From positions 273,663 through 337,662 of the forward strand of contig CAWIZL010000002.1 of assembly GCA_963840645.1 (NCBI GenBank): a DNA stretch of 64,000 nt. The letters are read 5' to 3'. Positions 1 through 47,568 of the stretch are shown piece by piece. Made by a program: the position numbers and the translations under genes. The notes beneath the pieces are model-generated. The model ran no database searches. It was not told the DNA's origin and was given only the letters and a program-made list of their open reading frames with translations. Positions within the stretch are counted from its first letter, which is position 1. Each line of letters starts with the position of its first letter. This DNA comes from Candidatus Doudnabacteria bacterium (GTDB lineage: Bacteria; Patescibacteriota; Doudnabacteria; UBA920; VMFF01).

Positions 1-949
1 GGTTTGTTAGGTGTACGGCAAGTCCGTACTTGCGTGACTCTGACATCATGCTGATGAACGCGTCCGTGAGCACGTTTTGGAACTCATCCACGTAGAGGTA
101 GCACGGTGCGCGCAGCGACTCTGGCAGAGCTGCGCGACCCAGAACTGCTGCCTGTAGCTTTGCCATGAGGATGAGGCCGAGCATCTGCGAGTTTGTCTCG
201 CCAATTTTTCCCTTGCACAGGTTGATGAGTACAATCTTCTCGTTGGCAATGGCATCGGCAATGCTGAACGCAGAGCTCTGCTGGCCAATGATGTTCGCCA
301 TGGTCGCGTTCGAAACGAAGCGCCCAAACTTTGATGAGAAGTAGTTGAGCATCTCAGAGCGGTGGAAGTCTGACGTCTTTGCCATTTGCCTATCCCAGAA
401 ATCTAGCACGGCTGGGTCTGTGACGTGGCTCACCGCCTGGCGCTCGTACTGCCTATCCACGAACAGGCGCGGGATGTCGAGCAGCGTGCCGCCACCTGGC
501 TGTGCCATTACGGTGAGGGCTGCACTGCGCATCCAGTGCTCGAACTGCGGGCCAATCACGCCGGTTTGCTCTGGGTCAAAAATTTTGTAGAAAATTTGAA
601 TTGCCTCAGAGACCAAAAAATCTTTTTCGTCCGGCGTGCGCCACTCGAGCAGGTTCATGCCGGTGGGTGTTTCCACGTTCGATGGATCGAACAGCACGAC
701 ATCGTCAATGCGGTTCTGCGGAATTACAGACAGTAGGTAGTCAATGGCCTCGCCGTGCGGGTCAACGAACACCACGCCACACCCGGCGCGAATGTCCTGC
801 AGCGCCATGTTCTGGTACAGCGTTGACTTGCCAACGCCAGTTTTGCCGATCATGTACGCGTGGCGGAAGCGGTCGGCGTGCGCCACCCCAACGAGCAATT
901 TTTTTTCTCGAACGTGGGCTACGCCCAGCTCGACCTCAAAGTTTGCCAT
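1..949 (-). CDS. VirD4/TraD-like coupling ATPase (FtsK/HerA superfamily), partial; the C-terminus lies beyond the left window edge
   Basis: Absent from the ORF track because there is no stop in the window. My own translation from the ATG at 949 gives MANFEVELGVAH..YMIGKTGVGKSTLYQN (Walker A)..CYLYVDEFQNVL (Walker B)..SESRKYGLAVHLTN and stays open to nt 1. Confidence 0.7.
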   Translation of the reverse strand, partial: MANFEVELGVAHVREKKLLVGVAHADRFRHAYMIGKTGVGKSTLYQNMALQDIRAGCGVVFVDPHGEAIDYLLSVIPQNRIDDVVLFDPSNVETPTGMNLLEWRTPDEKDFLVSEAIQIFYKIFDPEQTGVIGPQFEHWMRSAALTVMAQPGGGTLLDIPRLFVDRQYERQAVSHVTDPAVLDFWDRQMAKTSDFHRSEMLNYFSSKFGRFVSNATMANIIGQQSSAFSIADAIANEKIVLINLCKGKIGETNSQMLGLILMAKLQAAVLGRAALPESLRAPCYLYVDEFQNVLTDAFISMMSESRKYGLAVHLTN

Positions 950-954
950 GGCTT

Positions 955-1188
955 TCAGTCAATGCGAATTACCTTGGGCAGCATGTGCCGCTCCTCGAAC
1001 GTGTCGCGGGGGAGTGCCTGCGCAACATTTTCCCTTGCTGCTCTTGCACCCCGTGCGCCGTGCACAGCTCTTGTGTGCGCTTCTTCTGCGTGCAGTTTTT
1101 CCTGAATGGCATTGTAGCTCTTCAGTGAAATGAACTGCTTCACAGACTCGAGCTGCTCTAGGCGGCTCTGTGAGTTAATCTGTGTCAT
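955..1188 (-). CDS. Small hypothetical protein (77 aa)
   Basis: Track ORF. Its ATG overlaps the upstream Clp-like stop as ATGA (1185-1188), and it ends 5 nt before the VirD4-like ATG, which suggests translational coupling within one operon. Confidence 0.5.
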   Translation of the reverse strand: MTQINSQSRLEQLESVKQFISLKSYNAIQEKLHAEEAHTRAVHGARGARAARENVAQALPRDTFEERHMLPKVIRID

Positions 1189-2782
1189 ACGCTCTGGCTC
1201 ACCTTAATTTCAATCAAGCCCTCGCACGTCTGTTCAATGAACCGTTTTATTGGCCGAGCACCCATTCGTGGGTCTGCGAGCTCTTTAACCTTGGCGAGGA
1301 GCAGGCCAGGGTCAATGTTAAATTTAATGTTGTGCTGGGCAGTGCGCTCCTCAATTTTTTTAATCTCTAGCAGGGCAATGTTCAAAAGGCTTTCGTTCGT
1401 GAGAGGCTTGAATACAACAATCCCGTCAAAGCGGTTCAGAAACTCTGTTCTGAAGTACTTCTTCAGCAGGGGCATCAGGTCTTGTGCAGTTTCTGCACCC
1501 CGCACAATTTGCTCAATGCCAATGTTTGAGGTCGCAATAATGGTGGTATTTGTGAAGTTAACCGTTTTTCCTGATCCGTCCGTGAGCCTTCCGTCTTCTA
1601 AGACCTGTAGAAAAATATCGAACACGCGGGCGTTGGCCTTCTCAATTTCATCTAAGAGCACGAGAGAGTAGGGTTGAGATTTAATCGCGTTCGTGAGCTG
1701 GCCGCCATATTCGTGGCCAACGTAGCCGGGGGGGGCGCCCACTAAGCGCTGCACGGTGTGCGCCTCTGCAAACTCGCTCATGTCTATGCGCGTGAAGCTC
1801 CGCTCTGATCCGTAGACAAGGTCTGCGAGCACGCGCGAAAGCTCTGTCTTGCCGACGCCAGATGGTCCCAGGAACAGGAACGAACCGTACGGCCTGTTCG
1901 GGTTGCGCAATCCAATGCGGCTGTGGCGGATGACCTCAGCCACGACCTGCACAGCGTGCTCCTGGCCAATGACGCGCCTGTTCAGTTCAGCTTCTATGTG
2001 TAGAGGGGCAGCGGTGTTTGGTATGCCAGTTTTTTCTGAGAAGGCTGATTCAACGCTGCGTACGTCCAGCGTAACCAGCCCAGACATTTTTGCGTAGGCG
2101 AGCGATTCATCGAGCAGGTGCATGGCGCGCAGCGGCTGTGCCCTTTCACTGGTCATGCGGGCCTGACAGTTCTGCCGCACGCTGCACTGCGTCAGCTGGA
2201 ACCGCAATGCCGTAGCTTGTGCGAACGACGCCGACAGCGAACTAAAATTTCTGCTGTCTGTGCGCCGTCAGCTTCTGCCAGTTCAATGTCCTCAAAGTTT
2301 TGGAAGAACGCTGCGTGCTGCAGCGCGAGCTGCGCTGTACGCTGCATCGTTCACGGTCATGAATGAGGGAAATGCCCGGCGTGGCGAGCAGTGGCCCAAA
2401 CACTTGGCTCACCTCAAAGAGCTTGCGCTCTGGCACGACGCTCGCAAAGTCATCTATGAACACAATGGTGGCACGTGGAATTCTGCTGAACGCCTCATGC
2501 ACAGCGTGGCTAGAGTTCCCAGCCAGGAGGGTTTTGAGCTCTGCTGGTATCAAGTTTAACAATGGCCGTTTCCCCAAAGCCGCTAATTTTTTGCGTGGCA
2601 ACGCGGTACGCAAAACCCTCGACGAGCGCTGTCTTGCCAGTGCCGCTCTTGCCGCGCACGAGCACGTTGCCGTTGTACTGCCGCTGGAGGGTTCGGGTAA
2701 TCCTGCGCAGCTCTGCCTCACGGCCAGCAACGTTGCCGATAGCCTTGCGCAGCGCCTCTTTTTTTAGGTCGTAGTAGAGCAT
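1185..2782 (-). pseudogene. ClpA/ClpB/ClpC-like two-domain AAA+ ATPase without N-domain or long M-domain; the D1 domain is broken by about 4 frameshifts
   Basis: D1 Walker A is GKSGTGKTALVEGFAYRV (ORF 2510..2782) and Walker B is IVFIDDFASVV (ORF 2242..2730). The arginine-finger region ..FFQNFEDIELAEADGAQTAEIL lies in a third frame. D2 is intact (1185..2207: GQEHAVQVV..FLFLGPSGVGKTE..LVLLDEIEKA). Confidence 0.7.
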
Positions 2783-2789
2783 TTATTTT

Positions 2790-3593
2790 TTAGGCAGCCT
2801 GGCGAAGCTCTTGGAGCGCAGCGTAGGCTTCTTCAAGAGAGGTACCTGACTCACCATCGTTAGCTACGTCTTCTTGGGGGCTGAGCGCGTACGCCTGCAT
2901 AGTTGATCGCGCCTCGGGTTGCTCTGCCTCTGTTCTAGGGGCAGCCTCAGTTGTTGAGGGAAGTCCTGCTAGGCCAATGCCTGCTCTGCGAGCTTCAAAA
3001 ATTCTGCGGCCTTCTTCTACTGAGACAACTTTTGGCTCGCTGGTTTCGTGTACGGCCTCTTCGTGGTGGAAAAATTCTGGCGTAGAGGTTGCCATGTTCC
3101 AAGCTGCTTCCACCTTGGCATCCTCTGCCTTCTTCGCAAGCTCAGCGGGGGATAGCCCGCCCAGTTTTTTTTCGTTGCCGTTCTTCGCGATCTCTTTTGG
3201 CACCTCTCTTACTTCAATTGTAATTCTGTCTCCAGAAGAAGTGATGGTGTGCTCAAAGTGGGTGAAAGCATTTTCCGGGTTGTCGACGTGGCGGACAACT
3301 TTACCGTCAAGGGCTTTTATGTAGAGCGATAGAACTTTCTCGATAGGCGCACCGCCTGGCATTGCCTCACACGCAGCGCGCATTGACCCTGCATTGCTCA
3401 TGTAGTCTACGACGACTCCGTGCTCGTTGCGAATGAGAATGCCGTGGTACTCCTTACCTGGTGTGTCGTGGAACTCGTACGTTGGCTGCGGTGGTAGTTC
3501 CTCAATTCGATTCTCCACCTCGAAAAGTTTTTCGTTTACAGCCTCTTCTGTTTCTAGTTCTTCTGCAAGTGCAGTGCCCGTTGCTTCTGCCAT
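2790..3593 (-). CDS. Hypothetical acidic protein (267 aa)
   Basis: Track ORF with an ATG start, located 7 nt upstream of the Clp-like gene. I recognised no family. Confidence 0.55.
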   Translation of the reverse strand: MAEATGTALAEELETEEAVNEKLFEVENRIEELPPQPTYEFHDTPGKEYHGILIRNEHGVVVDYMSNAGSMRAACEAMPGGAPIEKVLSLYIKALDGKVVRHVDNPENAFTHFEHTITSSGDRITIEVREVPKEIAKNGNEKKLGGLSPAELAKKAEDAKVEAAWNMATSTPEFFHHEEAVHETSEPKVVSVEEGRRIFEARRAGIGLAGLPSTTEAAPRTEAEQPEARSTMQAYALSPQEDVANDGESGTSLEEAYAALQELRQAA

Positions 3594-3613
3594 AATTTTT
3601 GTGTTAAAAATTA

Positions 3614-3635
3614 GCGTACCCTGTGCAGGGTGCGC
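3614..3635 (-). terminator. GC-rich hairpin followed by a U-rich run, 20 nt upstream of the 3593 start codon (terminator or attenuator)
   Basis: GCGTACCCTG..CAGGGTGCGC forms a 10-bp stem with one G-U pair. In minus sense it is followed by TAATTTTTAA. Confidence 0.35.
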
Positions 3636-3817
3636 TGACGTTTGCCAGTGACCTTCCTGCTCGGGAAAAGTTTACAAGTTTGGTATCTGACTTCTCTCGC
3701 TGCTCTCAGCGCTCGAGTTACAGTTGCGGCACAGTCCCGGAATTTGAGCGTTGGCCCATCACCGGAGTTCCCAAATATTTTCTTACACTGGCATCATACG
3801 CCCTAGCTTTTTTCGTG

Positions 3818-4306
3818 TCAATCGAACAGCTCTCTGAGGCCGTCAGTGTTGTTGATGCTCTCAATGGTGATGAGCCTCACGAACAGCTTCTGCGACAGCT
3901 CTTTGAGCTCTTGCTCCACTTCCTGCGGCAGGGTGTACGGCGTGATCCATGTGCTGTGCTGCCACTTCTTGAAGCCGAGCTGCTTAATCTTGCTCCTTAA
4001 GTAGTCTCGCGTTGAGCGCTGCGATTCTGGAATATCGAACACAATCATTCTCCACTTGCCATCTCTGGTGCGATCAGCAGCTGAAATTGCTGCTTTTCCC
4101 TTTGGTGATACACGTACGTACTCAAGGTCTTTGTGCATGTACCGCTCTAGGTAGCCTCTTTTTTCAAGCTGGTAGAGCTGCGTGTACACTTTCCTGTACG
4201 ATTCAAATTTGTAGTGCGTCTTAATGAATGCGTAAATTGTTGATTTTCCCTCGTTTTCAACGATTTGGAGCATCTTTATTGAGTCTGATGACAGCTTTTG
4301 AGACAT
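3818..4306 (-). CDS. PaaX-like transcriptional regulator (winged HTH plus Cas2/VapD-like ferredoxin-fold C-terminal domain)
   Basis: The C-terminal motif GKWRMIVFDIPESQRSTRDYLRSKIKQLGFKKWQHSTWITPY is typical of the PaaX/Cas2-like fold. The N-terminal segment YTQLYQLEKRGYLERY resembles a wHTH. Confidence 0.6.
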   Translation of the reverse strand: MSQKLSSDSIKMLQIVENEGKSTIYAFIKTHYKFESYRKVYTQLYQLEKRGYLERYMHKDLEYVRVSPKGKAAISAADRTRDGKWRMIVFDIPESQRSTRDYLRSKIKQLGFKKWQHSTWITPYTLPQEVEQELKELSQKLFVRLITIESINNTDGLRELFD

Positions 4307-4855: not shown

Positions 4856-6211
4856 GTGTCCGAAGAAAAATCTGAGAACAATTTAATTTCACTCTCGCAG
4901 GCGAGCGAGATAACGGGGTACAACCAAGACTACCTCGGGTTCTTGGCGCGCACTGGAAAACTGCAAGCTCAGAAGATTGGACGCAACTGGGTGACGAGTA
5001 TTTCTGCTGTGAATTCACTTCTGGGAAACAATTCTGAAGCTGGTACAAAAACGAGTGGTGCTGTGCGAGAGTCGGGAGCGCAACTGCCTTTGGCAGTTCC
5101 CACACAAGAAGTTCCAGTTGCACTAAGCAGAGAAGACTTTTTTATTGTTCCACCAAAGCTCAAGGTTTCTGCTGAACCACTCCCACCTGCGGCACCAGAA
5201 GGTTTTGCAGAATCAAACTTACTTGCAGTTAAGCAGGCAGCACAGGCAGAGCAGAGAGTTTCTGATGAGCAGCACGAGGCAGCAATGCGCGCGAGCATTG
5301 CAGCGGGTGTTGCCAGCAAGCTTGAAAATTTTCAGAAAGATTTTAAGGCTGAGCTCGGCGCGGTTGTAGGAACAGTTGTTGCAGAAAAAACCGCAGAGAG
5401 GTTTGCCGCAGACGCAGCACGTGCAGCTGCAATCGAGCAGGCAGCACAGCAAGAGGCAGCGCAGGCTGCGAAAGAAAAATCAAACGTTGCGTTCAGGAAC
5501 GCATCTGGTGCAGTTGAGGTTCTGCCGCTCGCGGCTGGAGTTGCAGCAGCGCGCTCTCTCGATACGGCAAAAATTTACAAGAGCTTCCAGAAAAATTTAT
5601 CGGCGCAGCAGGTGCGCTACGGCATCGCAGGTGCAGCCGCATCAGTGGCGATTGTGGCGCTCGCAATTTTCTTTGGGTACAGAACACTGAACACTGGAAT
5701 TCAAAAGCAGTTCGCCTCCCTGCCCGTTCGCACGCAGCAGCTTGTCGCTGTTCAACCTGAACCCCAGCAGCCGCAAACTGAGCAGCCACAAAAAATTGTT
5801 TACATCCAGGGTTCGCAGACCGTGAAGTACGTGCAGGGGCCTGGCCGGCGCAGCTGCCGCAGGGTTTGCCCAGGACAGCAAGGCCCAGCTGGGGCAGCTG
5901 GCTCGCCAGCCCAAGCGGGTGTGTTCAACCCGTCCAATGGGCTCATTGCATCTCCGTACGCTCCATCGGGCAACACAGCAAACGTGCCGGTTTCTCCAAA
6001 TAGTGGCCCGCAAACAATTTTTTCATCAGGCCAAGGTTCGTTCAACTCGGTGACAACGAACGATCTCACGGCCAACGATCTCACGGCCAGCACGGCATCG
6101 CTCCAGTCTGCAAGCATTCCGAGCCTGAACGCAGGCACGGAGAACGTTTCTGGCGCAGCGATATTCAGCCGGTCCTGTGGTGTTCACAGGTTCTGTCACC
6201 GGGCTACCTAG
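4856..6211 (+). CDS. Giant surface protein, N-terminal fragment: excisionase-like HTH, coiled/Ala-rich segment, one TM helix, Gly/Pro collagen-like patch
   Basis: ISLSQASEITGYNQDYLGFLARTGKLQAQKIGRNWVTS (HTH); YGIAGAAASVAIVALAIFFGY (TM). The frame breaks near 6170 and continues in ORF 6177..12485 (..NVSGAAIFS / PVVFTGSVTGLPSG..). Confidence 0.7.
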   Translation: MSEEKSENNLISLSQASEITGYNQDYLGFLARTGKLQAQKIGRNWVTSISAVNSLLGNNSEAGTKTSGAVRESGAQLPLAVPTQEVPVALSREDFFIVPPKLKVSAEPLPPAAPEGFAESNLLAVKQAAQAEQRVSDEQHEAAMRASIAAGVASKLENFQKDFKAELGAVVGTVVAEKTAERFAADAARAAAIEQAAQQEAAQAAKEKSNVAFRNASGAVEVLPLAAGVAAARSLDTAKIYKSFQKNLSAQQVRYGIAGAAASVAIVALAIFFGYRTLNTGIQKQFASLPVRTQQLVAVQPEPQQPQTEQPQKIVYIQGSQTVKYVQGPGRRSCRRVCPGQQGPAGAAGSPAQAGVFNPSNGLIASPYAPSGNTANVPVSPNSGPQTIFSSGQGSFNSVTTNDLTANDLTASTASLQSASIPSLNAGTENVSGAAIFSRSCGVHRFCHRAT

Positions 6212-9200
6212 CGGGTCAAGTTCCCTCATCAGCACGACCACGCCACAGCTCACGGCAGGCTACGATACCGCGCACGAGTGGTCAGCGTCTACGAACAGCG
6301 CTGGCGAAACGACGTTCACGCCATCGGTAGACAGTGCGTCAGCCTTCACGTTTACCTCATCAAACGGCACGCCACTCATTAGCGTGAATACCTCAGGCAA
6401 CGTGCTCACGGCGAGCGGCAACGTCACGCTCAGCAGCGCGACACCTGTGGTAGACAGCCCGAACGGCACGCTCGACATCAACACGGTCACGAACCAGCCT
6501 GTGACATTTGGCACTGGCACAATCACCTCAAACGGTGCAGTGGCCATCAGCGAGAACGCCGACGCTGGCAATGGACACACGTCCACTGGACTGAACGTGA
6601 ACATCACTGACAACACCACCGGCAGCGGCGCGTACACTGGGCTGGCTGTCACGGCAACCGGTTCTGGCGTTGGCACTGGCAGCAAGTACCTGCTCGACCT
6701 CACGCCCACGAACGCTTCCAACGAGGTGGTGTTTGACAACTCTGGCTCGCTCCACCCAACTGCGTCGCTGAGTTCAAACACAGCTTCCATTGGCTCGCCG
6801 TCAGACTACTTCAAGAATGGGTACTTTGACACCATCACCGCAAACAACATTCAGGGAACCGTGGTGAGCACCTCAACGTCTTCAACGAGTTGGACTATTG
6901 GGTCAACGCAAACTGGTGACGTGAATGAGTCAGTCATCTTCCAACGCGACAGCGGATTGAACAACGCCGAACTCCAGTGGAATGCTGGCAGCGGTGACCA
7001 GCGCTACCTGGGCGTGAACTACCCATTCAACGCAACGTACACCATCAGCAATTCGTCTATCGGCACAACTGCAAACCTGTACTCAGGTACGCTGACGAAC
7101 AACACAACGTCAGGCACGCAAAATTTATTGTCGCTGACTAACGCCGGCACGGGCACGACTGCCAGTGGCATCTACCTGAACAACACTGGCACGGGAACCA
7201 CTGCGCTGGACATTGCGGGCACGTGGACGAACGGCATTGTGACGAACGGTAACTCTATCAGCGCAGGTTCTGGCAGCATCAGCGCGGCAAACATTACGCT
7301 GTCTGGTCTGACCGCAAACACGTTTGTGTACTCTGGTGCTGGCGGCGCAATCACGGCTACGTCTGCGCCGACGAACGGCCAAGTACTCATTGGCTCAACG
7401 GGCACCGCGCCAGTTGCCGCTGCATTAAACACGGGCAACAATATTTTAATCACGGACGGAGCTGGTTCAATTACGGTTGCGACAGTGAACAACCCAGTGT
7501 TCTCAACGTCTGTGACCACGCCGCTGCTCACGAGCACAGCCACGTTGACCGTTGACTCTGGCTCTGGCAGCCCACTGGACATTGGCCCAGCGAACGCATC
7601 TGCGGTGAACATTGCCCAGCTCGGCGTGGCGACCAACGTGCTCGGCTCACTTGCCGTGACCAGCAACGTGACTGGCGGCACGTACAACACTGCCACAATT
7701 TCGGGCGGCACGTTGAGCGGCGGTTCATTAACTGCAACAACAGTTAATGGCGTAACGACCGCAAACATTTTGACAACAGGAACAGCATTTAGCGGAGATT
7801 TAACCGGCACGTACAATGCCTTAACCTTGAACACGGTCAACACCAACACCGGCAGCTTTGGATCCTCGACGGCAATTCCTACCTTCACGGTCAACGGCAA
7901 AGGCCTCATCACCGCAGCTGGCACGGCAGCGGTTGTTGCACCAGCTGGCACGCTCACAGGCACAACGCTCGCCTCGAACGTGGTGTCGTCTTCGCTGACC
8001 TCTGTTGGCACCATTGGCACTGGCACGTGGCAGGGGACGCCAGTTGCGCTGCAGTACGGAGGCACGAACGCCAACCTAACTGCATCGAACGGGGGCATCT
8101 TCTACTCAACAGGTTCTGCCGGCGCCATCTTGTCTGGCACGGCAACGCCAAACCAGGTGCTCTTGTCAGGGTCAACTGCTGCGCCATCGTGGTCAACGGC
8201 AACGTACCCTGCCACCACCACGGCGAACCAAATTCTGTACTCGTCATCGGCGAACACGCTGGCAGGCCTCGCAACTGCAGCGAGCGGCGTGCTCGTCACG
8301 TCGTCAGGTGGAGCACCTTCGATATCGTCAACTCTACCAGCTGCGGTGCAGGGCAACATTACCCAGGTCGGCAACGTGGCTGGCGGCACGTACAACGGCA
8401 ACACCATCACCACGGGCACGGGCACGCTCACGCTGAACGCAAACACGCTCACGGTTTCTGGCACATCGAACATCAACCAGGACGTGACCACAACGGCAAG
8501 CCCGACCTTTGCTGGCGCAACGCTCTCTGGCCAAACTACGAGCCAGGGCATTCTGCTGACGAGCAGCGCGGGTGCCATTTCAGAAACAGCGCAGGGAGCA
8601 GCAAACCAAGTTTTGACTGGACAGGCTGGATCCACGCCGACGTTCGAGAACATCTCAGCGCTCCTCAGCGCAGGCAACGACATCCAGGCAATCTCGGGCG
8701 CAACGCCGACCATAGCCGTTTCAACCACGCCGACGTTCACGAGCGTGAACGGCCTGGCAATCACGAACAATGGCACGAACACGTTAAACATTGCGGCAGG
8801 CAAGACATTAACGGTGAACAACTCGCTCGCCTTCTCTGGTACTGACGGAACCACGTTCACGTTCCCCGGATCGTCAGATACAGTTGCCACGCTCGGCGCA
8901 ACCCAGACGCTCACGAGCAAAACCTTGACCACGCCGCGCATTGGCACGTCAATTTTAGATGCAAACGGCAACACTATCCTCGGCCTCACGGCAACTACGT
9001 CGGCGAACAACTCTATCACGCTGGCCAATGCGGCGAATGGTTCAAACCCGAACATCAGCGTTGTGGCAGGCAGCGATGCAAACGCTGGCCTCAACCTCAC
9101 CACGAAAGGCACGGGCAGCTTCAACGTGAACTCAACTACCGCAAACTCGGCGACCATTGCCATTGCCCCGCAGGCTGGCGCGTCAGACTCAGCCACCATC

Positions 9201-12200
9201 CAGAACGCAGCCATCACCGCAAACCGCACGTACACCCTGCCAGACCAGAGCGGCACGTTCGCGGTTGCGGCAACAGGGCCAGTGCAGCTTTCAGCTGCTG
9301 GCACCATCACGTGCCCAACCTGTCTCGTGTCAGCTGGCAGCATCTTCACGCTGGCTGCTACCTCTGGTTCAAGCTCCACAATCAACCAGGGTTCAACGGC
9401 GACCATAGCCCAGGGCACGAACATCACGACCACGAGCAATGGCTCAGGCCAGGTGACTGTGGCGACAGTTGCAAACCCAGCGTTTGCAACATCGGTGACC
9501 ACGCCGCTCGGCATTGGCTCGACCAGCGCCAACGGCACGCTGACGCTCCAGGGCAACTCGGCGACCTCGGGCAACACTGGCACGAATGCAGCCATCAGCC
9601 TGAACGTGGGTAACTCTGGCGCCACGAATGCGCTCACAGCCCTCAATAACGGCGACGTCGGCGTTGGCACAAGTTCTCCGTCAGCACTGTTCTCGGTGGG
9701 CAGTGGCTCGCCGCTCCAGGTGGATAGCTCAGGCAACCTCTCAACATCGGGAAATATTTCGACTAGTGGATCAGGTACCACAACTTCAGCAGGCCTCTTG
9801 ACTGGCCAAGCTGGCCTCACGGTCACAGGTGCTGCCACGAATCTGAATGTTTCTTCAAACTTTGGGACAAACATCAACACTGGCAGCTCGAACGGTGCTG
9901 TCTCCATCGGCAACTCGTCAGCGGGGGCAGTCGCCATTGCCTCAGGCGCAGCCTCATCGTTTACGGTCACCTCAGCTGGCCTAACCCTCCAGACGGCGAC
10001 CTCGGGCACGCTCGCCGTTACCTCAGCTGGCGCACTGAACCTGACTGGGGCAGCAGCCTCGACGCTCGCGCTTCCGTCAAACACCGCGAACGCCCTGAAG
10101 GTGACTGACGGTACGAACGGCTACCTGACCTTGGACACGAGGACTACACACAGTGGCTCTTCGGCTTTGACGTTCGCCGTTGGCACGGCGCCGACCATTG
10201 CCTCAGCCTCAGGTGCCCAGTACATTGGCACCACCAGCACCCCGGGCACGTTCAACTTTACTGGTACAACGTCTCTGACTGGCACAGGCACAGGGGCAAC
10301 CATTGGATCGCTCTTCAACCAGCCCACGGTGAATGGCAACAACACGTTCACGGTTGCCGAAACAGACAACGTGCTGGTGAGCGGCCCAGCTAAGGCCACG
10401 TCGTCATCTGGCACAGAAACCATAACGAACGCGTACGGCCTCAACGTCCTCGCTGGCGCTGCCCTCAACGGTTCTGGCGGAGCAGTCACGAACGCGTACG
10501 GCCTCTCGGTGAACGCGCCGACTGGCGCCTCGGGCAACTACGCTGCTGTGTTCCAGGGTGGCAACGTCGGCATTGGGACGGCAACGCCAGCAGCACTCCT
10601 GTCGGTTGGTTCTGGCTCGCCGTTCCAGGTGAATGGCTCGGGCACCATTACCGGTGCATCGCAAACCCTCACGGCAACAACCAACCAGCTCACGCTCGGC
10701 ACAACGAACACCACCACCATCAGCGCCACGGCACCAGCAGCATCCCGTACGTACACCATTCCCGACGATTCGGCAGCGAGCGTGAACTTCGTGCTCGCGC
10801 CGACCTCTTCAACAGCCACGCAGGCGCTCTTCGCCACGACTACTTCAGGCTCGCCAGCATACCGCGCCATTGCAACCACAGATTTACCAAGCTCAGTGGT
10901 CACCGCCATCACCAACGGCACGAACGTGACAGGCAGCATCTCGGGGCAGACGCTCACCCTCGGCTTCACTGGACAGCTCGGCGTGGGGTCTGGCGGCACG
11001 GGCGCGGTCAGCATTACAGGTCTCGTCAAGGGCAACGGTGGGTCAACGCCATTCTCGGCAGCTGTACCTGGCACAGACTACCAGGTGCCGCTCACGTTCT
11101 CGTCTGGCCTCACGAACACCTCGAACACGGTCACCAATAACCTCAGCACAGGTATCAGCGGCAACCAGACCGTGCTCGGCTCGACCTCTGCCAACGGCAC
11201 GCTGACCCTCCAGGGCGACTCGGCGAGCGGCGGCAACACGGGGACGAACGTTAACGTGCAGTTCAATGTCAGCGACTCGGGCAGCACCACGGCCCTCGCC
11301 ATCACCAACAACGGCGATGTGGGCATCGGTACCTCAACCCCAACCGCAGCCGGTCTCGTCGTTGCCACAGCTGGGGCTGCCTCGCTCTCGGGCGAGGACG
11401 TTACCGGTGCCTGGTTCACCGTGGGCGGCAACGCGACCACTACGAAGCCGCAGCTCTTGGTTGAGCCAGCGGGCACAACTTCGGCCGCTTGGTCGACCTC
11501 AGGCACAGGCCTCGGCGTAAACGCTGGTTCCAGCTTTACGGGCAACCTAGTCGATCTCCAGGTTGGCGGCACGAGCGAGTTCACGGTGAACGCCTCAGGC
11601 GATGTCACGAACGGTACGTGGCAGGGTCAGGCAATCGGGGCGTCCTACGGTGGCATGGTTTACCCTGGCTCGGGCATTCCGAACTCAACTGGATCGGCTT
11701 GGGGTACGTCGTACACGACCACGGGTGGAGGCACGATCTTAGCTCTGAGGAACTCGCCGACTTTCGCAACCCAGGTCACTGACCCACTGCTCATTGGTGC
11801 GGCCGCGGCCAACGGCACCCTGACGTTCGAGGGCAACTCGGCGACTTCGGGCAACACGGGCACGAACTCGGCTATCAGTTTCAACGTTGGGAATTCGGCG
11901 AGCACGAATGCAATCACGATACTCAACAACGGCGACGTGGGAGTTGGCACGGCCACAGCGGGCGCAAACCTCGACGTCGAGTCCACGACGACCTCGGGCA
12001 CCATCATCCAGGGCGCCGCCCCCTCCGCGGTCACCCTCGCCGGCACGCTCACCGGCCTGAACCTGAACCTCTCGACCAACGTGACGGCCACGGGCGAGTC
12101 GGTCACCGGCGCCGCCGTCACCCTGCCCGCGGTCACCAACACGGGGGCATCCACGTACACGTACAACGGCCTCTCGGTCACCGGCAGCGCCATCGTCCAG

Positions 12201-12485
12201 AACACGGGCGCCGGCACCGACAACTGGAACGGCTTCGCCATCGCCATGCCGAACCAGACCCAGACCACCGGCACGGTCACCTCGACCGGCATCGCCATCA
12301 CCGGCGGCACGGTGACGTCCGGCACGGCGTACGCGCTGACCACGTCGCTCTCGGCCGGCGCCGTCGGCTTCGGCACCACGGCCCGGGCGCCCGCCTCGAC
12401 GTCGAGTCCACGACGACCTCGGGCACCATCATCCAGGGCGCCGCCCCCTCCGCGGTCACCCTCGCCGGCACGCTCACCGGCCTGA
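6177..12485 (+). CDS. Giant surface protein, central fragment (2102 aa; Thr/Ser/Gly/Asn-rich, tail-fibre-like beta-repeats)
   Basis: Uninterrupted 6.3-kb ORF. A recurring ~70-aa module ..ANGTLTLQGNSATSGNTGTNAAISLNVGNSGATNALTALNNGDVGVGTSSP.. occurs 3 times. The GNVGIGT..P motif is typical of tail-fibre/adhesin proteins. Confidence 0.8.
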   Translation: MVFTGSVTGLPSGSSSLISTTTPQLTAGYDTAHEWSASTNSAGETTFTPSVDSASAFTFTSSNGTPLISVNTSGNVLTASGNVTLSSATPVVDSPNGTLDINTVTNQPVTFGTGTITSNGAVAISENADAGNGHTSTGLNVNITDNTTGSGAYTGLAVTATGSGVGTGSKYLLDLTPTNASNEVVFDNSGSLHPTASLSSNTASIGSPSDYFKNGYFDTITANNIQGTVVSTSTSSTSWTIGSTQTGDVNESVIFQRDSGLNNAELQWNAGSGDQRYLGVNYPFNATYTISNSSIGTTANLYSGTLTNNTTSGTQNLLSLTNAGTGTTASGIYLNNTGTGTTALDIAGTWTNGIVTNGNSISAGSGSISAANITLSGLTANTFVYSGAGGAITATSAPTNGQVLIGSTGTAPVAAALNTGNNILITDGAGSITVATVNNPVFSTSVTTPLLTSTATLTVDSGSGSPLDIGPANASAVNIAQLGVATNVLGSLAVTSNVTGGTYNTATISGGTLSGGSLTATTVNGVTTANILTTGTAFSGDLTGTYNALTLNTVNTNTGSFGSSTAIPTFTVNGKGLITAAGTAAVVAPAGTLTGTTLASNVVSSSLTSVGTIGTGTWQGTPVALQYGGTNANLTASNGGIFYSTGSAGAILSGTATPNQVLLSGSTAAPSWSTATYPATTTANQILYSSSANTLAGLATAASGVLVTSSGGAPSISSTLPAAVQGNITQVGNVAGGTYNGNTITTGTGTLTLNANTLTVSGTSNINQDVTTTASPTFAGATLSGQTTSQGILLTSSAGAISETAQGAANQVLTGQAGSTPTFENISALLSAGNDIQAISGATPTIAVSTTPTFTSVNGLAITNNGTNTLNIAAGKTLTVNNSLAFSGTDGTTFTFPGSSDTVATLGATQTLTSKTLTTPRIGTSILDANGNTILGLTATTSANNSITLANAANGSNPNISVVAGSDANAGLNLTTKGTGSFNVNSTTANSATIAIAPQAGASDSATIQNAAITANRTYTLPDQSGTFAVAATGPVQLSAAGTITCPTCLVSAGSIFTLAATSGSSSTINQGSTATIAQGTNITTTSNGSGQVTVATVANPAFATSVTTPLGIGSTSANGTLTLQGNSATSGNTGTNAAISLNVGNSGATNALTALNNGDVGVGTSSPSALFSVGSGSPLQVDSSGNLSTSGNISTSGSGTTTSAGLLTGQAGLTVTGAATNLNVSSNFGTNINTGSSNGAVSIGNSSAGAVAIASGAASSFTVTSAGLTLQTATSGTLAVTSAGALNLTGAAASTLALPSNTANALKVTDGTNGYLTLDTRTTHSGSSALTFAVGTAPTIASASGAQYIGTTSTPGTFNFTGTTSLTGTGTGATIGSLFNQPTVNGNNTFTVAETDNVLVSGPAKATSSSGTETITNAYGLNVLAGAALNGSGGAVTNAYGLSVNAPTGASGNYAAVFQGGNVGIGTATPAALLSVGSGSPFQVNGSGTITGASQTLTATTNQLTLGTTNTTTISATAPAASRTYTIPDDSAASVNFVLAPTSSTATQALFATTTSGSPAYRAIATTDLPSSVVTAITNGTNVTGSISGQTLTLGFTGQLGVGSGGTGAVSITGLVKGNGGSTPFSAAVPGTDYQVPLTFSSGLTNTSNTVTNNLSTGISGNQTVLGSTSANGTLTLQGDSASGGNTGTNVNVQFNVSDSGSTTALAITNNGDVGIGTSTPTAAGLVVATAGAASLSGEDVTGAWFTVGGNATTTKPQLLVEPAGTTSAAWSTSGTGLGVNAGSSFTGNLVDLQVGGTSEFTVNASGDVTNGTWQGQAIGASYGGMVYPGSGIPNSTGSAWGTSYTTTGGGTILALRNSPTFATQVTDPLLIGAAAANGTLTFEGNSATSGNTGTNSAISFNVGNSASTNAITILNNGDVGVGTATAGANLDVESTTTSGTIIQGAAPSAVTLAGTLTGLNLNLSTNVTATGESVTGAAVTLPAVTNTGASTYTYNGLSVTGSAIVQNTGAGTDNWNGFAIAMPNQTQTTGTVTSTGIAITGGTVTSGTAYALTTSLSAGAVGFGTTARAPASTSSPRRPRAPSSRAPPPPRSPSPARSPA

Positions 12486-13670
12486 ACCTGAACCTCTCGA
12501 CCAACGTGACGGCCACGGGCGAGTCGGTCACCGGCGCCGCCGTCACCCTGCCCGCGGTCACCAACACGGGGGCATCCACGTACACGTACAAGGGCCTCTC
12601 GGTCACCGGCAGCGCCATCGTCCAGAACACGGGCGCCGGCACCGACAACTGGAACGGCTTCGCCATCGCCATGCCGAACCAGACCCAGACCACCGGCACG
12701 GTCACCTCGACCGGCATCGCCATCACCGGCGGCACGGTGACGTCCGGCACGGCGTACGCGCTGACCACGTCGCTCTCGGCCGGCGCCGTCGGCTTCGGCA
12801 CCACGGCCCGGGCGCCCGCCTCGACGTCGAGTCCACGACGACCTCGGGCACCATCATCCAGGGCGCCGCCCCCTCCGCGGTCACCCTCGCCGGCACGCTC
12901 ACCGGCCTGAACCTGAACCTCTCGACCAACGTGACGGCCACGGGCGAGTCGGTCACCGGCGCCGCCGTCACCCTGCCCGCGGTCACCAACACGGGGGCAT
13001 CCACGTACACGTACAATCGCTCTCGGTCACCGGCAGCGCCATCGTCCAGAACACGGGCGCCGGCACCGACAACTGGAACGGCTTCGCCATCGCCATGCCG
13101 AACCAGACCCAGACCACCGGCACGGTCACCTCGACCGGCATCGCCATCACCGGCGGCACGGTGACGTCCGGCACGGCGTACGCGCTGACCACGTCGCTCT
13201 CGGCCGGCGCCGTCGGCTTCGGCACCACGGCCCCGGGCGCCCGCCTCGACGTCGAGTCCACGACGACCTCGGGCACCATCATCCAGGGCGCCGCCCCCTC
13301 CGCGGTCACCCTCGCCGGCACGCTCACCGGCCTGAACCTGAACCTCTCGACCAACGTGACGGCCATGGGCGAGTCGGTCACCGGCGCCGCCGTCACCCTG
13401 CCCGCGGTCACCAACACGGGGGCATCCACGTACACGTACAATGGCTTCTCGGTCACCGGCAGCGCCATCGTCCAGAACACGGGCGCCGGCACCGACAACT
13501 GGAACGGCTTCGCCATCGCCATGCCGAACCAGACCCAGACCACCGGCACGGTCACCTCGACCGGCATCGCCATCACCGGCGGCACGGTGACGTCCGGCAC
13601 GGCGTACGCGCTGACCACGTCGTCGTCTGCTGGCAACGTTGGTTTTGGAACAACCACACCACTGGCAGCC
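11968..13670 (+). repeat. Four near-identical tandem copies of a 426-bp (142-codon) unit inside the giant gene
   Basis: TCGACGTCGAGTCCACG recurs at 11971, 12396, 12821 and 13246, giving an observed period of 425. Only the third junction has ACGGCCCCGGG and stays in frame; the first two have ACGGCCCGGG. Track ORFs 12506..12910 and 12931..13164 are repeat fragments. Confidence 0.9.
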
Positions 13671-15656
13671 CTCGACGTGAACGGATCCATTGTTCAAACC
13701 TCTGCTGTCTTTGCCACAGAGACGTTGGCGACAGCTACCCAAACGGGCGGTTGCTCTGGCGTGGGCACCACGATCACGACTACGCAGGCAGTGTTCCAGG
13801 ACAACACGCACGTGCCGCTGACCTCTCAGATTTACTACAACACGACCAGCGGCAAGCTGCTCCACGCCACGATCAACGCAGTGGTAACCTGCACTGACGG
13901 CAGCTCGAACAAGTGGTACGTGCTCACGCTCGGCAATGCAGTGGCATCGCAGGCTGCCACAGACACCGCAACCCTGTACACGCCAGCGGGCAACCTCGGC
14001 AACGCAACGTCTGGCTTCACGAACAACCTGTACGCGGTAAACGGCCACTTCGTGACAGCTACAACGAGCGGCGGCTTCGACATTGCAGAACAGTACCAAA
14101 CAGCTGATGCAACCATGGGCGCTGGGGACGTGGTGAGCGTTGATCCTGCGAACGCTGACTACGTTGCAAAGTCTGGAACCGGATACGACAGCAGCACCAT
14201 TGGCGTTGTATCAACGACACCTGGTTTGACGCTCGGTGCAAACCTCGGCAGCACGTGGCAGAAAGTTGCGCTGACTGGGCGCGTGCCTGTGCTCGTGAGC
14301 GATGAGAACGGTGTACCTGAGCCTGGCGATTTCCTGACTTCATCTGCGAGCTTGCCTGGCTACGCCATGAAGGCAACGCGATCTGGGAAGGTGATTGGCG
14401 AGGTGCTTGACTCGTGGGCAGCTGGCGAGCAGCAGACGCAAAATGTGAATGGCCTGACCATTCATACTGAAAACCTGGACGTTGACCTGCACGTTGGGTG
14501 GGAAAATATTGGCAACACGTTTGTGATGGGTGAACAGGATCCTGTTGCCGCACTGGCGAGCACGCAGCAGAGCACTGGCAGTGGCGCCGCTGGCCTGGAC
14601 GCCTCACCAGACTCTGACACGTTCATCATCCGCCAGAACTTGGCGACTGGTGCGCCGCTGGCTGACATCCTGCAGCTGCAGTCTGGCAGTGTCACGCGCC
14701 TGATGGTTGCATCGTCTGGTGCGACCACCATAAACGCGAGCGTGGCTGATACGAGCGCCAACGTGTTTGCCATCAGCAACAACGGCACGAGCGACTTCAC
14801 CATAAGCGCGAGCGGCAACGTGTTTGTTGCAGGCACGCTGGTCGTGCAGCAGGACATTGCCAGCTTGGGCGAGGTGCTGGGCAGCACGGCAATCTTGGCG
14901 CAGAACGCTGACACAGCTGCGCTGCACCAGGGCGAGGTGGTAATGCTGAGCGGTGCTACGGCAACGCCGGTTGTTGGCAGTAATCCTACTATTACCGTGG
15001 TGGCTGCTGTTGCGCCTTCGGGCAGTTCTCCTGCCGAGCCCGTGGTAATTGGAGTTGTGGATCGTAACCTGTCTGAGTTCAACATTCCAGGTGCGCCAGC
15101 TGCATCTGGCTCGGACGTGACTGTGGTTGCGCCGGGCGAGTACGCTGATGTGGTGACAGCTGGCACGTACGCTGACCTCGACGTTGATGCGAGCTCTGCT
15201 GCAATCAGCGTTGGCGACCGCCTGACAATTTCCTCTCATGCCGGCTACGTCCGCAAGCTGGTGTTGCCTGCAGACGCTGGCATGCCAGTGGTGGGTGTTG
15301 CCCTCGATGCCCTGGCAAGTGGCACTGGCCACGTGCGCGTGTTGCTGACGCTCGGAGCTGGCGCAGGCTTTGGTGGCAGCGGTGCGAGCGGTAGCTCTTC
15401 GACCGGCACATCTGGCACGCAGGGTCTGGATCCATCAACGTACGGACAGGGTTTTGGCTGGGCACCTGGCCAGACTGGATCAAGCTCTCCAACGCCAGCG
15501 CCGACCGATGCGCTAGTCCCGACCACAACCCCTACACCTTCACCGACCGATGTCCCTACGCCAACGGATACACCTGCCCCAACCGTGTGCCCAACCCCAA
15601 CGCCAGCTGCAGCGCCAACGCCCGTGCCTACCGATACGCCAGCAGCAGGTCAGTAG
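13095..15656 (+). CDS. Giant surface protein, C-terminal fragment (last repeat, tailspike/peptidase-G2-like region, Pro/Thr-rich tail)
   Basis: The segment GFDIAEQYQTADATMGAGDVVSVDP..YDSSTIGVVSTTPGLTLG resembles the C-terminal autochaperone regions of tail spikes. The protein ends PTPAPTDALVPTTTPTPSPTDVPTPTDTPAPT. Confidence 0.75.
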   Translation: MPNQTQTTGTVTSTGIAITGGTVTSGTAYALTTSLSAGAVGFGTTAPGARLDVESTTTSGTIIQGAAPSAVTLAGTLTGLNLNLSTNVTAMGESVTGAAVTLPAVTNTGASTYTYNGFSVTGSAIVQNTGAGTDNWNGFAIAMPNQTQTTGTVTSTGIAITGGTVTSGTAYALTTSSSAGNVGFGTTTPLAALDVNGSIVQTSAVFATETLATATQTGGCSGVGTTITTTQAVFQDNTHVPLTSQIYYNTTSGKLLHATINAVVTCTDGSSNKWYVLTLGNAVASQAATDTATLYTPAGNLGNATSGFTNNLYAVNGHFVTATTSGGFDIAEQYQTADATMGAGDVVSVDPANADYVAKSGTGYDSSTIGVVSTTPGLTLGANLGSTWQKVALTGRVPVLVSDENGVPEPGDFLTSSASLPGYAMKATRSGKVIGEVLDSWAAGEQQTQNVNGLTIHTENLDVDLHVGWENIGNTFVMGEQDPVAALASTQQSTGSGAAGLDASPDSDTFIIRQNLATGAPLADILQLQSGSVTRLMVASSGATTINASVADTSANVFAISNNGTSDFTISASGNVFVAGTLVVQQDIASLGEVLGSTAILAQNADTAALHQGEVVMLSGATATPVVGSNPTITVVAAVAPSGSSPAEPVVIGVVDRNLSEFNIPGAPAASGSDVTVVAPGEYADVVTAGTYADLDVDASSAAISVGDRLTISSHAGYVRKLVLPADAGMPVVGVALDALASGTGHVRVLLTLGAGAGFGGSGASGSSSTGTSGTQGLDPSTYGQGFGWAPGQTGSSSPTPAPTDALVPTTTPTPSPTDVPTPTDTPAPTVCPTPTPAAAPTPVPTDTPAAGQ

Positions 15657-18819: not shown

Positions 18820-19214
18820 GGGGATGACGGATCTTGACAGTGAACAGATCCACGCAAGTACGCAAGCCGGGCACTCTCAGAACCCCGTAACATTACTGAG
18901 AAAACTCCAACTGGCAACTTTGTTGCTAAGGTGAAGAATGCGTTCGCTCCGGCGTTCGCCTTCGCACCTGCTATGGCCTAGTCACTAGGTCGTAGCGCGC
19001 GACCTCGGCGTGCCTCGCGCCTTGGCCACCGCGCTTTATATAGAGGCTCACCTTGCTGGATGTGCACGCGACAGCAGGGGACACCACAGCGCGCAGACCT
19101 GCTGGTTAGTTTGTCCGTTTGTTAGCGTGCAGGCACTCAAAGCGGACTAAGCTTGTGATCAACTCGTGTGGTGACAGTCGCTGAGACCCAGTTTAACTCT
19201 CGGCATCTCCACCA
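18820..19214 (+). ncRNA. ssrA: tmRNA (transfer-messenger RNA)
   Basis: The 5' end GGGGATGACGGATCTTGACAG pairs with the 3' end CATCTCC-A-CCA, including a G3-U pair. AACTGGCAAC parallels the Bacillus resume region. The tag ORF is GGC AAC TTT..GCT ATG GCC TAG. Confidence 0.85.
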
Positions 19215-20138: not shown

Positions 20139-20747
20139 GTGGAGTCCAGTACAGATAGTTTCCCAATGTCGAGGATTGACTCCTTTAGCGACTGCGTTTT
20201 TGCTTTTGCTATTACCTTACTGGTCATTAACTTAAGGCTCCCGGCAACAGCACTAACTGGCGCAGAGTTAAATGCTTACCTGTTTAACCTCTGGCCAATA
20301 CTTGCAGCTTTCCTGTTGAGCTTCTGGGTTATTTACCGGTTTTGGAGTTCCCACGTGAGAGTGCTCAGCTACTACAAAGAAGTCAACAGCACTTTCTTGA
20401 GCCTGAACGCTTTCCTGCTGCTGTTCATTGTAGCCATGCCTTTCACGACAGATGTGCTAAGCCTGCACCCCCATGACGGTGGTGGAGTAGTTTTGTACGC
20501 TGTGGTGTTTAGCGCCGCCGCTTTTTTGGAAGCTGCACTGTGGCAGTACACAAAAAAGCATCCAGAGCTGCTGCGTAAAGCTGTGGATGAAGGAGAGGTT
20601 GATTCCTATCGTGGAAATGTCTTAATGTCAGGAATTATTTTTGCCTGTTCCATCCCACTTGGTTTTTTCTTCCCTTTCCTCACGGAGCTTGCGTGGCTGG
20701 TTGCTTTGCTGATAAGGCGGCGACACCAGCACCCAAAAGTTTCGTAA
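20139..20747 (+). CDS. TMEM175/DUF1211-family potassium channel-like membrane protein
   Basis: The signature RIDSFSDCVFAFAITLLV sits near the N-terminus, followed by 6 TM helices. The true start may be the ATG at 20166. Confidence 0.7.
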   Translation: MESSTDSFPMSRIDSFSDCVFAFAITLLVINLRLPATALTGAELNAYLFNLWPILAAFLLSFWVIYRFWSSHVRVLSYYKEVNSTFLSLNAFLLLFIVAMPFTTDVLSLHPHDGGGVVLYAVVFSAAAFLEAALWQYTKKHPELLRKAVDEGEVDSYRGNVLMSGIIFACSIPLGFFFPFLTELAWLVALLIRRRHQHPKVS

Positions 20748-21444: not shown

Positions 21445-21462
21445 TTTATTTTTTGCGCTAGG

Positions 21463-44353: not shown

Positions 44354-44374
44354 CGTGCTGGGTGGGCAGGCAAA

Positions 44375-44408
44375 GACCTCAGGGGCAGCAAGCTCTGAGG
44401 CCTTTTTA
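44375..44408 (+). terminator. Weak internal terminator followed by a promoter (TTGCGT-17-GATAAT, 44424-44452)
   Basis: CCTCAG (44377-44382)..CTGAGG (44395-44400) followed by CCTTTTTAT. Confidence 0.45.
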
Positions 44409-44463
44409 TACACAGCAGAGCGTTTGCGTATTGACCCTGCGTGTGCGATAATTTAAGCAAAGT

Positions 44464-47564: not shown

Positions 47565-47568
47565 TCTC

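Follow-up and report, generated by a model that had tools for sequence, protein, structure and literature searches.

The DNA considered here is a window of 64,000 nucleotides (nt), by which we mean the whole stretch analyzed, from Candidatus Doudnabacteria bacterium (contig CAWIZL010000002.1 of assembly GCA_963840645.1, positions 273,663 to 337,662, forward strand). On the minus strand of positions 1..4306, reading 5' to 3', lie a PaaX-like regulator, a leader, a gene for an acidic protein, a Clp-like AAA+ gene, a small open reading frame (ORF) of 77 amino acids (aa), and a gene for an ATPase resembling type IV coupling proteins (T4CPs). The last four genes make up the operon, or cassette, that is our subject. 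The features are as follows.

1..949 (-): soluble T4CP-like (VirD4/TrwB-like) ATPase, with the N-terminal 316 of its 417 aa inside the window and the remainder past the left edge
955..1188 (-): 77-aa helical protein, a conserved cassette member, called as an ORF that aligns with relatives
1185..2782 (-): two-ring Clp/Hsp100-like AAA+ gene, from tblastn with an intact 551-aa orthologue, Pfam, and a family alignment
2790..3593 (-): acidic protein of 267 aa (isoelectric point [pI] 4.75, C terminus ...LRQAA), an ORF, the first gene of the operon and the candidate client or substrate
3606..3643 (-): terminator-type hairpin with T-run (3610..3606), an inverted repeat supported by RNA folding, 13 nt before the ATG
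3654..3667 (-): invariant element TTCCCGAGCAGGAA between aptamer and terminator hairpin, from an alignment of eight leaders
3661..3813 (-): cobalamin riboswitch aptamer (Rfam RF00174) in the 5' leader of the operon
3793..3821 (-): sigma-70-like promoter, TTGACA-17-TATGAT, from a consensus scan (11/12 matches), directly upstream of the aptamer
3818..4306 (-): PaaX-like regulator with winged helix-turn-helix and Cas2-like PaaX_M domain (Pfam PaaX_M, 2.5e-21), upstream in the same orientation

The junctions between the four genes are tight. As read from the sequence, the TAA of the acidic gene is followed after 7 nt by the ATG of the Clp-like gene, the Clp-like gene and the 77-aa ORF share an ATGA overlap, and the TGA of that ORF is followed after 5 nt by the ATG of the ATPase gene. 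An initial annotation, made from the sequence alone, had described the same four minus-strand ORFs with 7-nt, ATGA-overlap, and 5-nt junctions, and all of this was found as claimed. Upstream, a 224-nt leader separates the acidic gene from the PaaX-like regulator.

The arrangement recurs well beyond this genome. Scanning one genome per GTDB species via the ATPase gave 80 loci, distributed over Doudnabacteria, Kaiserbacteria, Nomurabacteria, Magasanikbacteria, Berkelbacteria, Paceibacterota, and other lineages. Five contexts with homologues 64 to 82% identical had the same order, namely, an acidic or unknown protein, an intact Clp-like gene (~550 aa), a small ORF, and the ATPase. Among the 56 loci with a short soluble form of the ATPase (414 to 434 aa) and 2.3 kb or more of upstream DNA, 55 had a full-length Clp-like gene as the direct upstream neighbor, and the single exception carried a 402-aa ORF in the Clp-like position. 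A long form of the ATPase (811 to 869 aa, with an N-terminal transmembrane segment) was never found with a Clp-like gene in flanks of up to 8 kb on each side. The reciprocal search of metagenomes, which used a six-sequence alignment of the first AAA+ module (D1) of the Clp-like protein, found a short ATPase no more than 900 nt downstream in 31/32 loci, the exception being a distant Clp. The initial annotation had set the co-occurrence of this gene pair in related genomes as a test, and both counts bear it out; tight or overlapping junctions are likewise the rule in relatives (medians, 1 and 4 nt). Distances between the Clp-like proteins and between the ATPases run in parallel (Mantel r = 0.93), that is, the two co-diverge, and no relative of the cassette was found in IMG/VR viral contigs. 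A PaaX-like gene precedes the cassette in four of five distinct homologue contexts and at 12/80 genome loci; its link to the cassette is confined to some lineages, so the regulator is not a core part. Recurrence of the arrangement in ~100 loci is far beyond chance. The Clp-like/T4CP-like pair is obligatory and sits in a four-gene operon across many of the ultra-small Patescibacteria, and several classes of this group keep the operon and pass it on vertically.

The initial annotation had asked for the complete ATPase gene. The full protein was obtained as public protein P0001 (417 aa), which matches the window part at 100%. It contains no hydrophobic segment, in agreement with the earlier statement that the coupling protein has no N-terminal transmembrane segment, and its Walker A motif starts at residue 35; GKTGVGKS (residues 35 to 42) and YLYVDEF are invariant or nearly so in 43 family members. 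Three Pfam domains exceeded their cutoffs (TrwB_AAD_bind, 36 bits, cutoff 20.5; TraG-D_C, 25.4 bits, cutoff 22; T4SS-DNA_transf, 22.6 bits, cutoff 20.1), DUF87/HerA fell under its own (22.2 bits, cutoff 23.2), and NCBIfam TraD models gave 41 bits against a cutoff of 366. Sequence matches to solved structures were weak, with TrwB first (E = 9e-4) and HerA at E = 0.02. An AlphaFold2 (AF2) model built from 43 homologues, with a predicted local distance difference test (pLDDT) score of 88.6, places an all-alpha insertion at about residues 106 to 235 between two core strands. In a Foldseek search with this model, TrwB, Cagbeta, and DotL came out on top, each matching over full length (TrwB-deltaN70, E = 1e-14 and template modeling [TM] score 0.60; Cagbeta, TM score 0.68; DotL, TM score 0.61). 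HerA structures were covered only in part (TM score normalized to the target, 0.36 to 0.54), the N-terminal HAS barrel of HerA is absent from the model, in which just two short strands precede Walker A, and FtsK was not among the top 50 matches.

On the basis of the Pfam domains over gathering scores and the full-length fold match, we favor a T4CP-type protein lacking a transmembrane segment rather than HerA or FtsK, and against HerA the preference is narrow. The classification of VirD4 versus HerA/FtsK proposed as a further check thus comes down on the T4CP side in both Pfam and Foldseek with HerA close behind, and the two are set apart by architecture, not by a decisive score. T4CPs lacking transmembrane segments are already a known subfamily, with TraJ of pIP501 as an example (PMC7434980). 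The ATPase domain was present in 4,468 clusters (50%-identity level, E <= 1e-30), nearly all of them proteins of 700 to 2000 aa, and the ~420-aa form reduces to a handful of 50%-identity clusters. The best match to the window ATPase among GTDB representatives was 69%, and mean ATPase identity across classes is 66%.

The long form deserves a description of its own. Its ATPase domain, 52 to 60% identical to the short form, makes up the C-terminal half of ~850-aa proteins anchored by transmembrane segments (L047:6780-9317 and L047:11087-14209; also in L031, L061, L071, and other loci). The neighbors at such loci are a second transmembrane-anchored T4CP-like protein of ~1040 aa and a Sigma70_r4/HARE-HTH protein, with no Clp-like gene and no riboswitch. 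At L031:3593-5917, an acidic 774-aa protein with a GrpE-like domain (Pfam, 1.5e-7) is encoded upstream of a long-form T4CP-like gene and, judged by that domain, represents another chaperone-type module beside a T4CP-like ATPase.

The Clp-like protein consists of two tandem AAA+ modules, with Walker A motifs GKSGTGKT in D1 and GPSGVGKT in the second module (D2). Pfam recognizes AAA_2 (4e-56) and ClpB_D2-small in the window gene and AAA_lid_9, AAA_2, and ClpB_D2-small in the intact orthologue; NCBIfam ClpB gave 339 bits, with a cutoff of 1232. When aligned to structures in the PDB, D1 corresponds to ClpB residues 167 to 400 and D2 to residues 533 to 834, and nothing else is present. There is no N-domain, as nothing aligns before ClpB residue 167, and no M-domain, with ~10 residues in place of ClpB 400-533. 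D2 is canonical (Walker A and B, the latter LLDEIEKA, a GYVG pore loop, sensor motifs, and the D2-small domain). D1 is degenerate family-wide: Walker A is kept, ID[DNGS]F replaces the catalytic Glu, and the family alignment contains no pore-loop Tyr and no KYRG-type loop. By inspection, no [ILV]G[FL] ClpP-docking tripeptide follows ATSNIG (...IEQIVRGAETAQDLMPLLKKYFRTEFLNR), and the length of this segment is ClpB-like. With no N-domain, no M-domain, a degenerate D1, and no ClpP-docking tripeptide, the protein has the sequence character of a stand-alone unfoldase-type ring and not of a protease partner.

In the window itself, the Clp-like gene is broken. The initial annotation had noticed this, and the break stands, with a different extent: tblastn with the intact 551-aa orthologue from related locus L001 gave six frame segments and thereby five single-base frame changes, at ~2545 (+1), 2350 (-1), 2243 (-1), 2217 (-1), and 2163 (+1), and not one or two, spread over 2160-2550 and not 2240-2570. 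The joined segments yield a collinear Clp-like protein of 532 aa. One explanation is that the gene is a true pseudogene here, or that the D2 half alone is expressed from an internal TTG at 2207, in which case the module would be decaying or rewired. All five changes do cluster in the D1 half, while the D2 half is unbroken (1185..2207, an ORF of 340 aa), many large ORFs elsewhere in the window are unbroken, which means that errors are not uniform, and D1 is catalytically degenerate throughout the family. Set against this, the reconstructed D1 is 64% identical to the L001 orthologue and D2 69%, a ratio of 0.93 compared with 0.75 to 0.89 in intact pairs; as the ratio is not under the intact-pair range, there is no excess amino-acid divergence in D1 and no sign of relaxed selection. 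Furthermore, all five changes are of +/-1 nt, D1 is unbroken in every relative with L082 as a possible exception, and an unrelated core gene has the same clustered breaks typical of a locally unpolished assembly. We regard decay, including a very recent pseudogene or a D2-only product, as improbable. Given the lack of excess D1 divergence and the damage to the second gene, the five breaks are most likely assembly errors, and the operon is thus probably intact in the organism.

That second gene encodes a PcrA/UvrD-like helicase (38803..40900, +) and is interrupted by no fewer than two frameshifts, near 40130 and 40720, with conserved motifs resuming in another frame, which suggests a locally unpolished assembly. 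At L082:6454-7662, in a public metagenome-assembled genome (MAG), the Clp-like ORF is only 402 aa and tblastn covers query residues 146 to 554; this could be a further frame break or a truncation.

The 77-aa protein has no match in Pfam, NCBIfam, or PADLOC. Nevertheless, it is a regular member of the cassette: in 57 related loci an ORF of at least 60 aa lies between the Clp-like and T4CP-like genes and aligns with it, sharing the motif FISLK.Y..I.EKL and a C-terminal YF.QK.L.

The acidic protein is far more variable. The proteins in its position are acidic (pI ~4 to 5) in 53/55 loci and range from 237 to 1134 aa, and they are almost unalignable except for an N-proximal domain of ~100 aa. The N-terminal region of the window protein is homologous to that of a 597-aa protein in the same position in L001, and a profile of the N-proximal domain matched two proteins. 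Otherwise it is an orphan, with no match in Pfam, NCBIfam, or PADLOC; a search of 5.8 billion proteins returned only the protein itself, and a single-sequence AF2 prediction had a pLDDT of 48.

The extreme C terminus of this protein behaves differently. A terminal Ala-Ala occurs in 36 of the 55 loci, versus 9 of 738 other long frames of the same loci (p = 7e-40), with Ala at -1 in 46/55, Ala at -2 in 42/55, and the consensus N-G-I-T-L-[RK]-[RIM]-A-A. In an independent metagenome set, 13 of 23 proteins had the Ala-Ala tail. Many different pairs of synonymous codons specify the terminal Ala-Ala, which lies 1 to 145 nt from the next start codon, so the constraint acts at the protein level. Tails of the GITLRRAA type are absent from the acidic proteins beside the long-form T4CP-like genes that lack a Clp-like gene. 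A YSPPQND motif upstream of the tail was also considered as a general feature and rejected, being present in only 6/55 proteins.

Because the tail recalls tags of the ssrA kind, the tag of the organism's own transfer-messenger RNA (tmRNA) is worth recording. The tmRNA gene lies at 18820..19214 (+) (Rfam RF00023, 67.8 bits; missed by ARAGORN even at relaxed thresholds), and its tag, GNFVAKVKNAFAPAFAFAPAMA, read by hand from the resume codon aligned to the model, ends in -AMA. Such an ending speaks neither for nor against tag mimicry.

The leader is the other conserved element. RF00174 matched the window leader over the full model (1-189) with 30.0 bits (E = 5.5e-6 locally and 8.8e-4 for the whole window). 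In relatives, leaders exceeded the Rfam gathering score at 10 of 18 loci and at five of eight others, in each case immediately before the acidic gene, with matches to Cobalamin, AdoCbl, or AdoCbl-II of 34.8 to 67.3 bits. By iterated nhmmer, 76 cassettes are preceded by the leader, with one copy per locus and always on the strand of the cassette, and nhmmer and Rfam combined place it in ~81/87 cassettes, most of the misses being cassettes that lack upstream DNA. Long-form loci devoid of the Clp-like gene had no riboswitch (0/21 by nhmmer and 0/8 by Rfam). The window and L001 leaders share blocks of near-identity. Across eight aligned leaders, the aptamer core GGGAA..CCGGTG..TCCGG..CTGTGCCGCAACTGT together with the B12-box-like AAGTCAGATACCAA is invariant or nearly so. 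The invariant element TTCCCGAGCAGGAA lies just 3' of the Rfam aptamer, whose model covers its first bases only, and may be a regulatory kissing-loop or anti-terminator strand.

The end of the leader is also conserved, in kind if not in sequence. A hairpin of -8 kcal/mol or stronger followed by a T-run, 5 to 40 nt before the start codon, was present in 51 of 67 distinct leaders in relatives, and the stem sequences differ between them. Both promoter hexamers (TTGACA and TATGAT) are kept in L001; sigma-70-like sites are not more numerous in the region than expected by chance, so it is position that supports the promoter. Judging by these sequence features, the operon most likely belongs to the vitamin B12 regulon and would be switched off by cobalamin via transcription termination. 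This riboswitch and the Ala-Ala tail of the acidic protein, neither of which was part of the initial annotation, are the strongest clues to function.

Taken together, we infer a cobalamin-repressed four-gene operon that would "unfold and translocate" the acidic protein, a reading to which we give a probability of roughly 40%. When B12 is plentiful, transcription would stop at the leader terminator, and when B12 is scarce, the operon would be made. The pore of the Clp-like D2 may then engage the Ala-Ala C terminus of the acidic protein, much as ClpX and ClpA engage ssrA tags, and unfold the protein without degrading it. The small protein could bridge to a hexamer of the T4CP-like ATPase, which would take the unfolded chain to a membrane channel. 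The 52 to 60% identity to a sister form anchored by transmembrane segments suggests that this ATPase domain works at the membrane. The most plausible channel would be the VirB4/VirB6 type IV secretion system (T4SS) encoded 45 to 50 kb away, and the exported acidic protein might serve cobalamin acquisition or host exploitation. The features in question are these.

45609..47564 (+): VirB6-like protein with seven transmembrane segments, from hydrophobic segments
49833..50528 (+): 231-aa ORF in the T4SS-like region
50531..52378 (+): VirB4-like ATPase (Pfam P-loop_TraG, 6e-24, and AAA_10)

The VirB6-like gene lies 44.7 kb and the VirB4-like gene 49.6 kb from the ATPase gene; the initial annotation was right that the ATPase is distant from the T4SS operon, and its figure of 40 kb was too low. 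Upstream of the VirB4-like gene, the region 42487..49172 (+) encodes several Ser/Thr/Pro-rich or Cys-rich proteins with single N-terminal transmembrane segments, and also two proline-rich proteins (47569..49172, +). None of these proteins has a Pfam match, and a role as pilin- or adhesin-like accessories of the T4SS is possible.

It is also important to point out what weighs against an unfold-and-translocate role. Six proteins of the T4SS region of the window were compared by tblastn with 131 related loci, and no VirB4-, VirB6-, or TrsD-like gene was found within 4.5 to 8 kb. With no T4SS gene near any cassette, the T4SS-delivery reading is unproven and the exit route is a guess. The four-gene operon encodes no membrane protein. 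The usual targets of cobalamin riboswitches are genes for B12 synthesis, B12 transport, or B12-independent isozymes, and none of the four operon proteins resembles known B12 synthesis, transport, or bypass families. The aptamer of the window itself, at 30.0 bits, is 1.5 under the Rfam gathering score of 31.5. Foldseek does not separate T4CP and HerA cleanly (E = 1e-14 versus 4e-14 to 4e-13). The ATPase is unusually conserved and its supposed client hypervariable, which fits a nucleic-acid or core partner equally well. The hand-read tmRNA tag of the organism ends in -AMA and not -AA, and the reader of the Ala-Ala tail could be the ATPase, or no protein of the operon at all. Finally, all comparison loci are MAGs or metagenome contigs, some with doubtful labels, and they are phylogenetically related, so that the counts above are not counts of independent events.

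Several of these points would be accommodated by the same module under the same B12 control acting as a T4SS-independent cytoplasmic machine that compensates for B12 shortage, an explanation that is nearly as likely, though doubtful in its own right. The T4CP-like ring could be a translocase of DNA or other nucleic acid that supplies deoxynucleotides when the B12-dependent ribonucleotide reductase stalls, or the Clp-like ring could act on a B12-related protein, remodeling it or removing its cobalamin; the acidic protein would then be a regulator, a DNA mimic, or an adaptor instead of secreted cargo. B12 riboswitches classically turn on B12-independent bypasses, as in the regulation of metE and nrd. 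The isolation of the 131 cassettes from T4SS genes, the lack of a transmembrane segment in the ATPase and of a membrane partner in the operon, and a 66% mean ATPase identity across classes, which is more typical of motors for DNA or core substrates than of effector receptors, all favor such a machine, and exaptation of Patescibacterial T4CPs has already been raised, with no mention of Clp or AAA+ partners (PMC12102498). On the other hand, the closest sister form of the ATPase is membrane anchored, a tail conserved at the very C terminus of a hypervariable protein resembles a translocation or engagement signal, and the operon proteins have no nuclease, nucleotide-metabolism, or B12-binding signature.

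A more specific version of the unfold-and-translocate reading is vitamin piracy, in which, under B12 starvation, an Hsp100-T4CP tandem motor would recognize the Ala-Ala tail of a rapidly evolving acidic "cobalophore," unfold this protein, and export it through the T4SS to or into a host and so capture cobalamin. We consider this unlikely. If true, it would bring two firsts for T4SS-type pathways, a dedicated unfoldase identified genetically and control by a vitamin riboswitch.

Also improbable is an explanation along the lines of the initial annotation, which had no B12 component. Here the ATPase would simply be the coupling protein of this organism's T4SS, located apart from the virB4 cluster, and a dedicated unfoldase would ready general T4SS substrates. 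Its premise of a substrate-delivery module holds as far as the conserved Clp/T4CP-type pair is concerned, and fails at the T4SS link, there being no T4SS gene near the 131 loci. The T4CP-type fold and Pfam domains of the ATPase fit this explanation, as does the VirB4/VirB6 cluster in the same window; in Patescibacteria, T4CP genes are reported to lie far from virB4 as a rule (PMC12102498), and the literature acknowledges that the ATPase responsible for unfolding T4SS substrates has yet to be identified (PMC6362355, PMC5826034). B12 shut-off in >90% of lineages would nonetheless be unexpected for a general coupling protein, and thousands of other transmembrane-anchored T4CP-like proteins of Patescibacteria are better candidates. 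In S. epibionticum, moreover, the T4SS is essential and the T4CP homologue is not (PMC12102498), and Wang et al. described this essential T4SS as lacking a recognizable coupling protein. The annotation of that organism contains the long, transmembrane-type T4CP-like SEML1_0142 and SEML1_0293 and a Clp-like SEML1_0700 that is not adjacent to them. As it has long forms only, its nonessential T4CP result from transposon sequencing is not transferable to the cassette.

An anti-phage or conflict system made of a HerA/FtsK-type ATPase and an AAA+ partner is very improbable and was rejected. In its favor are PADLOC matches, generic only (weak domain-level matches of the ATPase to mad8, 5e-12, and HerA, 1e-8; PDC-M37B, 1.6e-37, and DolB for Clp D2), the near equality of HerA structures with TrwB in Foldseek, and the hypervariable first gene. 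Against it, the module occurs once per locus with co-diverging ATPases, lies among housekeeping genes in the window, is absent from IMG/VR viral contigs, has no nuclease, Sir2, or other effector domain and no HerA HAS barrel, and is under vitamin-riboswitch control, which is no feature of known defense systems.

Two further regions of the window may be mentioned. Very large ORFs of 451 aa, 2102 aa (35-nt overlap, in another frame), and 853 aa occupy 4856..15656 (+), where the G+C content reaches up to 69% at 12 to 14 kb versus ~54% elsewhere. These may be giant surface proteins, with a further frame break at ~6180-6210. At 20755..22224 (-), two adjacent Peptidase_C39_2-like genes adjoin a gene for a TMEM175-type K+ channel (20139..20747, +).

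The combination of the Clp-like/T4CP-like pair, a B12 riboswitch, and an Ala-Ala-tailed acidic protein, as recognized from sequence, was not found described in the literature searched, and no paper was found that links cobalamin riboswitches with Patescibacteria or with such genes, subscription-only literature lying outside this search. A T4CP-type ATPase coupled, obligatorily and translationally, to an Hsp100 unfoldase, with a candidate client bearing a defined C-terminal tag encoded beside them, offers a minimal system for reconstitution in vitro, and what appeared to be a Clp-like pseudogene is most probably explained by a local assembly problem. Thousands of T4CP homologues of unknown role are located away from virB4 in Patescibacteria (PMC12102498), and one conserved soluble branch can now be split off from these "orphan" T4CPs and given a regulatory context. 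The riboswitch would tie the module to B12 scarcity in organisms that are unable to make B12 and live on other cells. This is an unexpected gene set for a B12 regulon and points to an unrecognized route of vitamin acquisition or bypass.

Compared with known systems, the ATPase shares with T4CPs (TrwB of R388, VirD4, Cagbeta, and DotL) a P-loop domain of the FtsK/HerA superfamily with an inserted all-alpha domain. It differs from them in having only ~15% sequence identity, with NCBIfam T4CP models far under their cutoffs, in lying near no T4SS or relaxase gene and beside no small membrane partner, in being more conserved within its family than T4CPs usually are, and in always being paired with an Hsp100-type ATPase under a B12 riboswitch. 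The superfamily is also shared with HerA-NurA and Sir2-HerA systems, where Foldseek E values are nearly equal; unlike these, the cassette has no HAS barrel, no DUF87 match over threshold, and no NurA or Sir2 partner.

The Clp-like protein has the tandem AAA+ modules of ClpB/Hsp104, ClpA, and ClpC, with a D2 that is 50 to 60% identical to that of ClpB, and like ClpV of the type VI secretion system it appears to be dedicated to one machine and not to general proteostasis. Unlike class-I Hsp100 proteins, it is ~550 aa long instead of 750 to 870 and lacks the Clp_N domain, M-domain, IGF/IGL loop, D1 catalytic Glu, and pore-loop Tyr. The acidic protein resembles substrates bearing ssrA degrons (...LAA-COOH) in its free C-terminal Ala-Ala after hydrophobic or basic residues and in the position of its gene directly upstream of that of an AAA+ unfoldase; its tail is, in contrast, genomically encoded and not added by tmRNA, and recognition by the pore of the Clp-like protein is putative, with indirect evidence in the absence of the tail motif beside T4CP-like genes that lack a Clp-like neighbor. 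As no ClpP partner is implied, the outcome for the acidic protein would be unfolding or translocation and not degradation. The leader, for its part, has what is expected of cobalamin-riboswitch regulons (btuB/btuFCD, cob/cbi, metE, and nrd), i.e., a cobalamin-clan aptamer, a B12-box-like core, and a terminator platform upstream of the first gene, whereas the genes it would control encode a pair of ring ATPases, a small helical protein, and an acidic protein that is an orphan.

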